From sequence record OM337876.1: a stretch of 64,000 bases of DNA; one strand, written 5' to 3'. The notes below the pieces were generated by a model. That model saw only the letters and a list, made by a program, of their open reading frames with translations, was not told where the DNA came from and ran no database searches. This DNA comes from Klebsiella phage KP182. Positions 31,060 to 33,148 of the stretch are shown here, piece by piece (the stretch's first letter is position 1; each line of letters opens with the position of its first letter). Made by a program: the position numbers and the translations under genes.

Positions 31060-31428
31060 TTACTGTTTAGTCCAATTATCCATGTTTAATTTACCTACCT
31101 TTTTCATTTGCTCAATTAAAGCATCGGCACGATTACGACCATTTTCATACCAAGTTACATCTTCTGAGTAACCGTCTTCTTCATCTTCATAAGTTTCAGA
31201 ACGAATACGACCAACAACCGGAGTGTTAAGAACATATACTGAACCTGTGAACCAGTTTGTTAAAGTGATATGCCAGCAGAAATCATCTGACGGTCCGTCC
31301 GGTGTCATGCATGGAACGATATCACCTTGAACTTTAGACAAAATCCACATTTTCTCATGGACAGTCTGAGCTTTGTAACCGTCATGGTCTTTAGTCTTGA
31401 TAGTTGCGTTCAGGTTGATGGTATTCAT
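31060..31428 (-). CDS. Hypothetical protein
   Basis: 122-aa ORF. An early-type promoter lies upstream. Confidence 0.55.
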   Translation of the reverse strand: MNTINLNATIKTKDHDGYKAQTVHEKMWILSKVQGDIVPCMTPDGPSDDFCWHITLTNWFTGSVYVLNTPVVGRIRSETYEDEEDGYSEDVTWYENGRNRADALIEQMKKVGKLNMDNWTKQ

Positions 31429-31454
31429 TTTATTCTCCGTTGTCCGTTTGGGTG

Positions 31455-31484
31455 GTACAGGTCTATAGTAACCTTGTTGAGCCT
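31455..31484 (-). promoter_or_regulatory. T4 early-type promoter
   Basis: On the minus strand: GTTTAC, 17 nt, then TACTAT. Confidence 0.5.
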
Positions 31485-31523
31485 AGAAGTAAACAACTTT
31501 TTTCATTCTGCGGAAAATAAAAA

Positions 31524-31548
31524 AGGGACTCCCGAAGGAGTCCCTGAA
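31524..31548 (-). terminator. Strong rho-independent terminator
   Basis: On the minus strand: GGGACTCC-TTCG-GGAGTCCC, then TTTTTTATTTT. Confidence 0.8.
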
Positions 31549-31549
31549 C

Positions 31550-31726
31550 TTATGCTTTCGGCTTACCAAAACGAGAAGCATCATCGCGAAGAACCGCACG
31601 AGCTCGACGCATGATTTTCTCAACCGTCTGATTGATACGCTTGTTCGACCCACGCTTGTAGCCAGCGCGTTTAGAGGTACCAACAACTTCTTTTACTGCA
31701 GTTTTTGCTTTAGCCTGTTTAGCCAT
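31550..31726 (-). CDS. Small, highly basic protein, 58 aa
   Basis: MAKQAKAKTAVKEVVGTSKRAGYKRGSNKRINQTVEKIMRRARAVLRDDASRFGKPKA. Start taken at the internal ATG, which has a weak GGAAG RBS. A terminator follows immediately. Confidence 0.4.
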   Translation of the reverse strand: MAKQAKAKTAVKEVVGTSKRAGYKRGSNKRINQTVEKIMRRARAVLRDDASRFGKPKA

Positions 31727-32094
31727 TTTATCATCTTCCATTTTGGAGAAATACATGGGAGCACGTTCTTCCGAGGTTCAACTTCTTTCGACAGTTCTTT
31801 CGGTTGTAGCTCCCGCAAGCCCTCAAGGGGTACGTTTAAACTCTTATCTGTTGCACACCGTTAGCTTAAAGGTTCCGGGTCCGATTTATCGGGGATAAGA
31901 TATACACCGATGGATGTATAGGCCTTGAGGCGTACTCCCGATTGGCCATCGCCTCGGGGTAGCATGCACTTGCCGTTTATTTTCTAGCTGCACTTTGGTA
32001 GCAAATCACCGTTGGTTTCGGATGTTTTACGTGGGGATAACCAACAACGTCCACATCATACGTTACCCATGCGTACACATGGTGGGCGTACAAA

Positions 32095-32343
32095 TTACTT
32101 CAGCGTTACCACAAAGTGGCGAACAGCTTTGCGAGCAGCAGAACCAAGATGCTTAGCATACTTCAGTTCGTCCATCGCTTCTAAAGTATCACGAAATTCA
32201 GCTTGTGCTGGGTTCAGGTGTTTAAACCCTTTCAGAACTTCCAGTGCTTCTGCATAGATATCGATTGAAGCACCGTAGTTTTCGTGACCGGAATTCCATG
32301 CATTACGTTGGAGTTCCAGAGCTTTAGTAAGTTGTTTGTTCAT
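32095..32343 (-). CDS. rIII: RIII-like lysis-inhibition accessory protein, 82 aa
   Basis: Internal ATG with a GAGGAA RBS. Size and position (just downstream of gene 31 on the same strand) match T4 rIII. Helical ALELQRNAWNSGHENYGASIDIYAEAL. Confidence 0.5.
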   Translation of the reverse strand: MNKQLTKALELQRNAWNSGHENYGASIDIYAEALEVLKGFKHLNPAQAEFRDTLEAMDELKYAKHLGSAARKAVRHFVVTLK

Positions 32344-32458
32344 TGAATCGTTCCTCAAATGAGGTTAAAATTTGGTGGACGGTAACCGAGGTTTAGCTCG
32401 GGCATCCACCGCATAGAATTGCTCGGGTAACTAATTGTCCGACGCCCAATTCATATTA

Positions 32459-32782
32459 TTATTTATATACGCATGCAAGGGACTTATAATGACAAGTCAC
32501 AAACTTCTGCCGAATTTCTTTGGGTTTCTTCACACCTGCTGCTACTAACGGATGAGGTACGTTTCTGATATTACCAACAGGCAGTGGAGTCAAATCACCG
32601 ACTTCAACAAATCCTTTCGGTACATCATCACCGATAGAATAGATTTCACACATATCCGGCAGTTGTCCTTGTTCTTCTTTACCAAGAATAATACCGGAAG
32701 GAGAAACAATTTCATCACCTTGTTGTGCAGGTTCAGATACGAGAATTACATACTCGCCTAGAGCTTTAATTGGAAGTTCCAT
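32459..32782 (-). CDS. 31: Co-chaperonin gp31 (GroES analogue)
   Basis: 107 aa. [14 protein letters not shown]...[32 protein letters not shown] matches T4 gp31 as I recall it. Confidence 0.9.
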
Positions 32783-32812
32783 GTGTTACCTTTATTGTTT
32801 GACCATGTAGTT

Positions 32813-32839
32813 ATATTAACATGGTCAGTTTAAAGCAAA
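32813..32839 (-). promoter_or_regulatory. MotA-dependent middle promoter for gene 31
   Basis: On the minus strand, MotA box TTTGCTTTA, 12 nt, then TAATAT. Confidence 0.45.
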
Positions 32840-33148
32840 TTACTTACCGATCATCTGCAGCAGATGCTCAACTTTCATACCATTTACCGAGATCAGTTTA
32901 TCAAAGGCAAATGAGCGCCAACCTTCTTTCTCGGTATCATATACCGGAAGTGAAGTAGTGCTTTCTGCTCGGGCAGATTTAGTAGTACTTTCTACCAAAT
33001 CAGATGGAATAATGTCTTTATCACGAGTACAGCGCAGAGTACGAATAGTGCCATCAGCTTTTTCAAACACAATCTGGGATTCACCCATACTCAGCACAGC
33101 TTTAAGTGTTTCACGGATATGGATGTTTTGTTCAGTAGTCAGTTTCAT
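32840..33148 (-). CDS. Hypothetical protein (31.1-like position)
   Basis: 102-aa ORF between cd and 31. Confidence 0.5.
   Translation of the reverse strand: MKLTTEQNIHIRETLKAVLSMGESQIVFEKADGTIRTLRCTRDKDIIPSDLVESTTKSARAESTTSLPVYDTEKEGWRSFAFDKLISVNGMKVEHLLQMIGK

Follow-up and report, generated by a model that had tools for sequence, protein, structure and literature searches.

Purine and lysine riboswitches share a closing P1 helix and the loop-loop docking of parallel arms, and the natural hairpin ribozyme docks two adjacent arms of a perfect four-way junction. In T4-type phages, Arbiol, Comeau and Krisch are said to have described in 2010 promoter-early stem-loops (PeSLs), mobile regulatory cassettes of the hyperplastic regions. 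Phage T4 also has two annotated stable RNAs, species 1 and 2 (rnaC and rnaD), of 139 and 119 nt, that are processed from a longer transcript. In addition, comparative genomics has revealed orphan bacterial and phage RNAs with complex folds, including raiA, ROOL, GOLLD, and HEARO-type RNAs (PMC2864571, PMC5737381; phage screen, PMC10690425). Here we analyze a 64,000-nt stretch of DNA from Klebsiella phage KP182 (sequence record OM337876.1), henceforth the window, which represents a T4-like phage of the genus Jiaodavirus. A preliminary description of the window had flagged 31757-32094, which is 100% identical to the corresponding stretch of vB_KpnM_KpV477, as a candidate structured RNA. Because the flanking genes rIII and the gene 30.9 homologue set its borders, the true non-coding gap is 31727-32094 (368 nt). 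Within this gap we identify an RNA unit of ~145 nt at 31837-31979, henceforth the cassette, and we are all but certain that it is a genuine functional structured RNA.

The decisive evidence is comparative. Our final alignment comprises 26 distinct sequences and 51 model pairs, and 97.1% of the alignment cells in these pairs are paired. Both sides have changed at 26 of the 51 pairs, compared with 11.4 ± 1.8 in shuffled alignments (none of 500 shuffles reached 26) and at most 9 when the registers were slid by ±1-3 columns as a second control. The preliminary description had proposed a comparison with related T4-like genomes as a test for covariation, and these compensatory changes supply it. A covariance model built from the family (R1) has a single match in the 64-kb window, at 31832-31985 (182 bits, E value 6e-41). 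The fold comprises the following features, in which position p of the 136-nt core (31841-31976) corresponds to window position 31977-p.

31837-31979, minus strand (sense with rIII and 30.9): the whole cassette from P0 to P0, about 145 nt, supported by the covariance model and covariation
31975-31979 (5' strand, UAAAC) and 31837-31841 (3' strand, GUUUA), minus strand: P0, the outer closing helix, formed from the immediate flanks
31921-31974, minus strand: the 5' arm, with P1, an internal loop, P2, and the apical loop CGAUGG (31946-31951)
31901-31920, minus strand: the P3 hairpin UAUACAU/GUGUAUA with the loop CCAUCG (31908-31913)
31842-31900, minus strand: the 3' domain, with P4, a three-way junction, P5, P6, and the invariant joiner GCAACA

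The closing helix P0 leads into a perfect four-way junction, where it is directly stacked on P1, P3, and P4. Arms 1 (P1, internal loop, P2) and 2 (P3) are held side by side by a 6-bp kissing helix, and arm 3 (P4) terminates in a three-way junction bearing P5 and P6. P0 is free in sequence and differs in almost every lineage, with its complementarity kept, as in slur03 (CUUAUAGC/GCUAUAAG), PKM.Lu (CAAACAGC/GCUGUUUG), EcS1 (CAUAUUAC/GUAGUAUG), and PS2 (CAUAC/GUAUG). Its pair 10-157 is AU in 13 sequences, GC in 11, GU in 1, UA in 1, and unpaired in none, and pair 8-159 is AU in 19, UA in 5, CG in 1, and UG in 1. P1 consists of three invariant pairs, GGC/GCC, and the internal loop between P1 and P2 (AAGUGCAU/CUCAAG) is conserved. 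In P2 (RNA positions 14-25 with 32-47), 97.7% of cells are paired and 5 of the 12 pairs show compensatory changes; such changes are found at four of seven pairs in P3, four of seven in P4 (UCUUAUC/GAUAAGA), which closes the three-way junction, and three of four in the P5 hairpin (31881-31892). The P5 loop is GAAA, a GNRA loop, in most members and UAAA in the window copy. P6 (ACCCG/CGGUGU), with a loop of 15 nt, is near-invariant and has one compensatory change, from A-U to U-A in the L056 member; this is also the sole L056 change within the stretch GCUAACGGUGUGCAACAGAU, which was invariant in the first 19 members found. The kissing helix was found by an all-against-all scan of alignment columns and pairs the P2 loop CGAUGG with the P3 loop CCAUCG in 26 of 26 sequences. 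Three of its pairs covary (CG in 17 and UA in 9; GC in 21, UA in 3, and AU in 2; GC in 24 and AU in 2), and the loops read UGAUGG/CCAUCA in Tequatrovirus-type members, CUAUGG/CCAUAG in Muldoonvirus, and CAAUGA/UCAUUG in EcS1 and L056. An apical pair C26-G31 proposed by RNAalifold was replaced by the better-supported P2 register with the kissing loop. Folding of the minus strand as a single sequence recovers the same helices in the centroid structure (z = -2.1).

Several pairs also identify the strand. G-U pairs such as 33-43 (GU in 13 sequences, GC in 13), 74-81 (UG in 24), and 97-109 (UG in 7) would be A-C mismatches on the plus strand; therefore, the RNA is the minus strand, in the same sense as rIII and 30.9. 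Unpaired positions vary less than paired ones (15 of 45 columns vs. 48 of 91). The cassette is better conserved than the protein genes around it: measured against the window copy, the core is 87-96% identical in six genera and 75% identical in EcS1, and the corresponding values are 68-75% (rIII), 61-75% (gene 31), and 71-86% (30.9).

The features that had first drawn attention to the region are real. The longest open reading frames (ORFs) inside 31757-32094 are at most 53 aa, in agreement with the reported lack of ORFs of 60 aa or more, and the GC content, estimated by eye as 50% vs. 38%, is 49.4% in the segment and 39.8% in the whole window, a value that only 1.3% of 338-nt windows reach. Each of the five stems listed in the preliminary description was checked in the sequence and found at its place:

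31927: the GAGGCG-N17-CGCCTC stem
32067: the ccatg-cgtacac-atgg stem, CCATGCGTACACATGG
31881: the ccgat-tt-atcgg stem, CCGATTTATCGG, which is P5
31820: the ccctcaaggg stem, CCCTCAAGGG
31757: the GGGAGC-N46-GCTCCC stem

As parts of the RNA they fare unequally. The P5 stem stands, the gaggcg/cgcctc pairing is contradicted by the covariation of G46 with C15 instead (CG in 22 sequences, AU in 2, UA in 1, and UG in 1), and the other three are flanking modules. The repeats TGCACTT (31965 and 31989) and GCGTACA (32071 and 32086) are present as reported, at a number close to chance, as we estimate that ~3.5 repeated 7-mers are expected in 338 nt; TGCACTT is repeated because a flanking module, motif X (described later), and the 5' part of the cassette hold the same words (GCUACC, AAGUGCA). 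The folding energy of the whole segment is unexceptional (z = -1.5 and -1.3 for the minus and plus strands, respectively). The ORF gap, GC content, and hairpins are by themselves insufficient proof of a functional RNA, and the signal far above chance is the comparative evidence on the 31837-31979 core rather than single-sequence hairpin density; the closing helix, four-way junction, and 6-bp kissing loop are not visible in one sequence. The proposal of a structured non-coding RNA in place of a plain spacer thus gains strong support from covariation, for a unit of only ~145 nt and not for the full 338 nt.

Searches for relatives among known RNAs were negative. The Rfam scan envisaged in the preliminary description, a cmscan run with the 4,227 models of Rfam 15, gave no match at gathering thresholds in the whole window, and at E values of up to 10 the surrounding 1.1 kb and the element alone yielded noise only (snoZ242, whose threshold is 90 bits, scored 16 and 9.6, and Atu_C8 matched the terminator). 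ARAGORN found no transfer RNA (tRNA) or transfer-messenger RNA (tmRNA) gene in the window. Derivation from host sequence or mimicry of a host RNA, considered in view of tmRNA-like words (GUGCAUGC, CGAGG..GGCC), was rejected after BLAST gave nothing in E. coli genomes and plasmids. A homologue of T4 rnaC or rnaD was likewise rejected: with R1 run with filters off, the best overlap in the T4 tRNA/rnaC/rnaD region scored 1.3 bits (E value 9), and R1 found nothing in the T4 rIII region. The sigma-70-type early promoter that accompanies the stem-loop of PeSLs has no counterpart here, as there is no minus-strand promoter-like site at the cassette. A literature search that included sequence words found neither a paper with those words nor an RNA described between rIII and 30.9, its coverage being incomplete and the result an absence of evidence only; the main text of the phage RNA screen (PMC10690425) does not mention the cassette, its supplementary lists lying outside the search. 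Judged by these comparisons, the RNA appears to represent a new family without detectable relative.

The cassette is widespread in, and confined to, phages. In a BLAST search against 50,697 phage records, only a core of ~135-145 nt (about 31836-31980) is widely conserved, and it occurs in ~406 records (407 places); identity is at least 80% in all but two of them, and all but one have a single copy. By comparison, gp30.9 occurs in 1,010 records. In T4-like carriers, the cassette always lies between rIII and 30.9; they include Jiaodavirus, part of Tequatrovirus, Dhakavirus (JS10), Karamvirus, Kanagawavirus, Moonvirus, Kagamiyamavirus (EcS1), and Muldoonvirus. Presence is patchy: spacer loci of the slur03 type have the filled allele in 180 of 951 records, and the cassette is absent from T4, T2, T6, RB69, Pet-CM3-4, Kc304, PM2, Ursula, Melville, and VP8, in which diverged copies were sought with R1 (with filters off for RB69, Pet-CM3-4, Ursula, Kc304, PM2, T2, and T6). 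Pet-CM3-4 is a Karamvirus without the cassette, though other Karamviruses have it. The core had no BLAST match among 5,426 genomes of E. coli and 72,556 plasmids, and the invariant 20-mer has no exact match in the genomes of 185,579 prokaryotic species. Six matches to a looser two-gap pattern (on cyanobacterial, Aminicenantes, and haloarchaeal contigs) were all rejected by the covariance model. Pattern scans of metagenomes and IMG/VR, which miss diverged members, returned only T4-like contigs and three new variants.

Natural presence/absence pairs define the boundaries of the cassette. When T4, slur03, and the window are aligned, a cleanly bounded difference of ~155 nt stands out within near-identical Tequatrovirus flanks; it is exactly the cassette, and T4 has GAA in its place (TTGAATGT^GAA^TGATGACGG). 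An unrelated 76-kb phage of the Grimontviridae, PKM.Lu.22.1, carries a diverged, fully foldable copy (82% identity) between a single-strand DNA-binding (SSB)-like gene and an extracytoplasmic function (ECF)-type sigma-factor gene (Pfam Sigma70_r2/r4). In its sibling PKM.Hi.22.6 (98.3% identity), GAAATC stands in place of exactly the 152 nt from P0 to P0, and motif X and a terminator are retained next to the insertion site. The Grimontviridae genome has neither rIII nor 30.9, and the fold is kept. The cassette has thus crossed into an unrelated phage family. The gene upstream of it in PKM.Lu.22.1 (L018 1346-2119) encodes a product that ends in an acidic tail, ...DEGLDFDDDCPF, and has no Pfam match; a relative is annotated as a single-strand DNA-binding protein. 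In NM4.3, L032, and PKM.Lu.22.1 the cassette begins 3-8 nt past the upstream stop codon. Hallmarks of miniature inverted-repeat transposable elements are lacking, as there are no conserved terminal inverted repeats (P0 varies), no target-site duplication, and no multiple copies, and comparison of empty with filled sites shows a few bases replaced, not duplicated.

The remainder of 31757-32094 is a mosaic of small hairpin modules around this one core. The spacer between rIII and 30.9 contains about five short hairpin modules whose order and presence differ by genus (the window compared with L001, L003, L008, and L010-L019), which illustrates on a small scale how modules are shuffled in T4-type hyperplastic regions. 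The modules in the window are as follows.

31982-32010, minus strand: motif X (GGUGAUUUGCUACCAAAGUGCAGCUAGAA), a separate module outside the RNA fold
32014-32057, minus strand: module C, a separate module with the hairpin GUGGA...UCCCCAC followed by GUAAAACAUCCGAAACC
31733-31835, minus strand: module D, the 5' leader of 30.9, which precedes 30.9 in nearly all T4-like members
31820-31829, minus strand: first hairpin of module D, CCCUUGAGGG, also present in T4
31757-31814, minus strand: second hairpin of module D, GGGAGC...GCUCCC, with a covarying base and a top of variable length
31734-31749, minus strand: UCUCC-AAAAU-GGAAGA of module D, which pairs the likely Shine-Dalgarno sequence of 30.9

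Motif X, of ~30 nt (GGUGAUUYGCUACC..AAGUGCRGCU.GAA, with a small GGU/ACC hairpin that is AGU/ACU in PEi20), is common to T4-like and Grimontviridae phages (also at L018 1156-1199 and L049 ~660-745), including the cassette-free PKM.Hi.22.6. The motif is found upstream of the cassette in the window and PEi20, right after the rIII stop codon in VR26 (L008) and VR5, and downstream in PKM.Lu.22.1; it might serve as a linker in recombination or as an RNA signal of its own. Module C is upstream of the cassette in Jiaodavirus, Muldoonvirus, and PEi20, downstream in Tequatrovirus, Dhakavirus, EcL8g, and EcS1, and also present in cassette-free T4. The base of the second hairpin of module D reads, by eye, GGGAGC/GCUCCC, GAGAG/CUCUC, GGGAAC/GUUCCC, or GGUGGA/UCCACC, with complementarity kept. 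The 30.9 leader is thus conserved in its own right; it ends in the invariant CAUGUAUUUCUCCAAAAUGGAAGA, in which UCUCC is able to pair with GGAAGA, and it resembles a translational operator that would control a small, very basic protein. Past the rIII stop codon of T4 (L001 ~1740-1770) and slur03 (L003 ~2750-2785), AUUCACUGCCUUAGUGUGAGCUAAAAUC resembles, at ~19 of 28 positions, GUUCACUGCCGUAUAGGCAGCUAAGAAA, which we take to be the repeat of type I-F clustered regularly interspaced short palindromic repeats; the repeat hairpin is not preserved, and the likeness may be coincidence. From the clean P0-to-P0 alleles, the shuffled flanks, and the capture by a Grimontviridae phage, it follows that what is moved and kept is the folded RNA itself. 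We regard the fold, strand, very strong conservation, cassette-like boundaries, patchy distribution, and transfer to an unrelated phage as established.

The genes and signals around the cassette are the following.

32831-32839: MotA-box-like TTTGCTTTA, upstream of gene 31
32459-32782, minus strand: gene 31
32460-32467, minus strand: late-promoter-like TATAAATA, upstream of rIII
32095-32343, minus strand: rIII (PHROG 1457)
31550-31726, minus strand: gene 30.9 homologue (PHROG 1427)
31514-31545, minus strand: intrinsic terminator AGGGACUCC-UUCG-GGAGUCCCU followed by a U-run (terminator site 31545-31524), after 30.9
31060-31428, minus strand: gene 30.8

No sigma-70-type promoter on the minus strand was found in or adjoining the cassette, nor was a terminator of its own found. 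The strong intrinsic terminator reported after the next small gene is located past 30.9; it is the sole terminator-like site within 31300-32900 and closes the rIII/RNA/30.9 unit. Because no sigma-70-type promoter adjoins the cassette and the first terminator follows 30.9, the RNA should belong to the gene 31/rIII/30.9 transcripts, and the promoter-like sequences upstream are consistent with transcription from the gene 31 middle promoter and in the rIII transcript, as had been proposed. The Raoultella phage vB_Ro_M12a has ~960 bp to 1 kb of extra genes just past 30.9 (L047 374-1292; compare window ~31400-31550), of which one is annotated as goF mRNA metabolism modulator and another is homologous to 30.8 of the window. 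Such extra DNA occurs in some Jiaodavirus records (ValerieMcCarty04; vB_Ro_M12a was inspected) and is another accessory-gene polymorphism at the locus. We rejected a relation of the ~960-bp Jiaodavirus DNA to the RNA, as it consists of genes past 30.9.

What the RNA does can be addressed only with less confidence. It is very likely to have a specific molecular partner, because it outconserves chaperonin and lysis-inhibition genes, shows dozens of compensatory changes, and was captured intact by an unrelated phage family. The reading that we favor over a cis-regulator, at somewhat less than even confidence, is an autonomous, partner-binding RNA that would act in trans, because it is independent of its neighbors, was captured by an unrelated phage, is present or absent like an accessory gene, occurs in phages only, and has extremely conserved unpaired nucleotides. 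Lacking a promoter of its own, the RNA would be made within the gene 31/rIII/30.9 transcripts that end at the terminator past 30.9 and might be trimmed out of the messenger RNA (mRNA), which the A/U-rich flanks of P0 would permit, although this is speculation. The module could then work independently of rIII and 30.9, its conserved unpaired surfaces binding a partner common to infections of Enterobacterales, which could be a protein of the host or the phage or else a small ligand. Its role would be that of an accessory host-takeover or counter-defence RNA and not of a switch for neighboring genes. A bolder form of this proposal, which is possible yet doubtful, is that the cassette represents a new phage RNA class with a ribozyme- or aptamer-grade fold that phages infecting Enterobacterales trade as a stand-alone accessory gene and that acts in trans on a host system, for instance by hijacking host machinery that binds RNA or by serving as a decoy or sponge for an anti-phage defence.

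Several observations weigh against an autonomous trans-acting RNA. With neither promoter nor terminator of its own found, the cassette may work only within mRNA; its closing helix and conserved junctions are exactly what a riboswitch aptamer looks like; and PKM.Lu.22.1 has an intrinsic terminator ~45 nt downstream of it. A search of the window for antisense targets of the invariant 20-mer and the L6 loop found none beyond chance. The family is also shallow, and because many of the 26 distinct sequences are closely related, the covariation counts include inherited events; P1 is backed by invariance alone and P6 by its single compensatory change.

A cis-acting riboswitch-like aptamer, in which binding of a metabolite or ion would open or close P0 and so control read-through or translation of the downstream gene (30.9, or the sigma-factor gene in PKM.Lu.22.1), is unlikely in our view, despite a build that suits it well: an aptamer-like core with invariant junction and loop nucleotides, loop-loop kissing, and a GNRA loop, closed by a helix that covaries freely in sequence. 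The cassette always precedes 30.9 in the same orientation, a conserved hairpin contains the likely Shine-Dalgarno sequence of that gene, and in PKM.Lu.22.1 the P0 3' strand GGCUG could pair, by eye and over only 5 bp, with a CAGCC abutting the terminator (CCCCUCUUCGGAGGGG followed by Us). However, there is no conserved expression platform, as the distance to 30.9 (~100-190 nt) and the modules in between differ by genus (D first or C first), and the Grimontviridae terminator and motif X are already there in the cassette-free sibling. The downstream genes of the two phage families are unrelated and form no coherent set (30.9 vs. an ECF-type sigma factor), bacterial members, which riboswitch classes usually have, were not found, and P0 is only ~2-3 bp in two Kanagawa/Karam-type members (Kosakonia phage 305 and myPSH1140). 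The varying distance and intervening sequence and the unrelated downstream genes argue against cis-regulation. A new self-cleaving or otherwise catalytic RNA might instead process the rIII-30.9 transcript, uncoupling the stability of its halves or releasing the RNA. The location inside a polycistronic mRNA, the compact fold locked by tertiary contacts, the invariant unpaired nucleotides, and the hairpin-ribozyme topology of a four-way junction with docked adjacent arms would all agree with this, but no ribozyme model of Rfam 15 matched at E values of up to 10, no known catalytic core motif was recognized, and T4 mRNAs are normally processed by host RNase E and phage RegB; catalysis is rated as quite improbable.

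We consider it distinctly unlikely that the cassette is a passive mRNA element, a very stable 3'- or 5'-end barrier that would keep exonucleases or RNase E away from the message on its upstream (rIII, SSB-like gene) or downstream side. Its start a few nucleotides after the upstream stop codon in several phages and a surrounding spacer full of simple stabilizer-type tetraloop hairpins would fit such a barrier, which however requires stability only and not invariant single-stranded stretches of 20 nt, a kissing loop, and a three-way junction; moreover, the unpaired nucleotides are the most conserved part, and the neighboring simple hairpins evolve freely whereas the cassette does not. Alleles with clean edges in two phage families could also reflect a DNA-level signal (a single-stranded or cruciform minus strand in priming, recombination, or homing) or a selfish miniature mobile element, and G-T mismatches are tolerated in DNA hairpins too, so that the strand asymmetry is no strict proof of RNA. 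Yet the cassette keeps to one copy, in all but one record, and to the same locus throughout the T4-like phages, its insertion replaced bases (GAA in T4, GAAATC in PKM.Hi.22.6) without target-site duplication, its ends carry no conserved inverted repeats, in both families it invariably runs in the direction of transcription, and the GNRA tetraloop of most members, the kissing loop, and the multi-junction fold are RNA hallmarks, which leaves a DNA-level explanation very improbable. Finally, many GenBank records carry one to three short ORF calls over the cassette on either strand, labeled as hypothetical proteins (e.g., kpv477_220), as a small unannotated protein gene or a decayed gene fragment would. 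These are almost certainly spurious gene calls: every member has at least one stop codon in each of the six frames, the longest open stretch falls to 15-20 aa in some, and the substitutions in paired columns are base-pair-preserving doubles. The chance of a protein gene or pseudogene is negligible, and the decayed remnant of an acquired gene that the preliminary description had offered as its alternative can be set aside.

If the bolder proposal is true, the cassette would join a very small group of virulent-phage RNAs that serve counter-defence or host takeover and are neither coding nor tRNAs. Identification of its partner might bring to light a ribozyme or ligand-binding RNA of a new kind, or counter-defence based on RNA. 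The RNA was overlooked in the well-studied T-even phages because T2, T4, T6, and RB69 happen to be without it, while about 40% of the sequenced relatives with gene 30.9 carry it, including many phages of Klebsiella, E. coli, Shigella, Yersinia, and Enterobacter under development for therapy. The natural filled/empty pairs (slur03 vs. T4 and PKM.Lu.22.1 vs. PKM.Hi.22.6) make the question directly testable.

Compared with the systems described at the outset, the cassette shares with PeSLs that both are small non-coding modules of T4-type intergenic regions that are reshuffled between genomes; however, PeSLs combine an early promoter with one stem-loop, whereas the cassette is without a sigma-70-type promoter and has a conserved multi-helix tertiary fold. 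T4 rnaC and rnaD are T-even-encoded stable RNAs of similar size, but they lie at another locus, the tRNA cluster, rnaC has a tRNA-like T arm that the cassette lacks, and R1 scores them at noise (at most 1.3 bits). With the hairpin ribozyme, whose Rfam models do not match the cassette, it has in common a perfect four-way junction with adjacent arms side by side; its arms, in contrast, are joined by Watson-Crick kissing of terminal loops and not by two docked internal loops. Like the purine and lysine riboswitch aptamers it has a variable closing helix, conserved junctions, and kissing between adjacent arms, and unlike them it has no Rfam match, conserved expression platform, coherent downstream gene set, or bacterial members. 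Finally, the cassette differs from the orphan RNAs in matching no Rfam 15 model, in being much smaller than ROOL and GOLLD, and in occurring only in virulent phages of Enterobacterales, and it resembles them in being a GC-rich, ORF-free island in an AT-rich genome with a covarying multi-helix fold, invariant unpaired nucleotides, and an association with phages.

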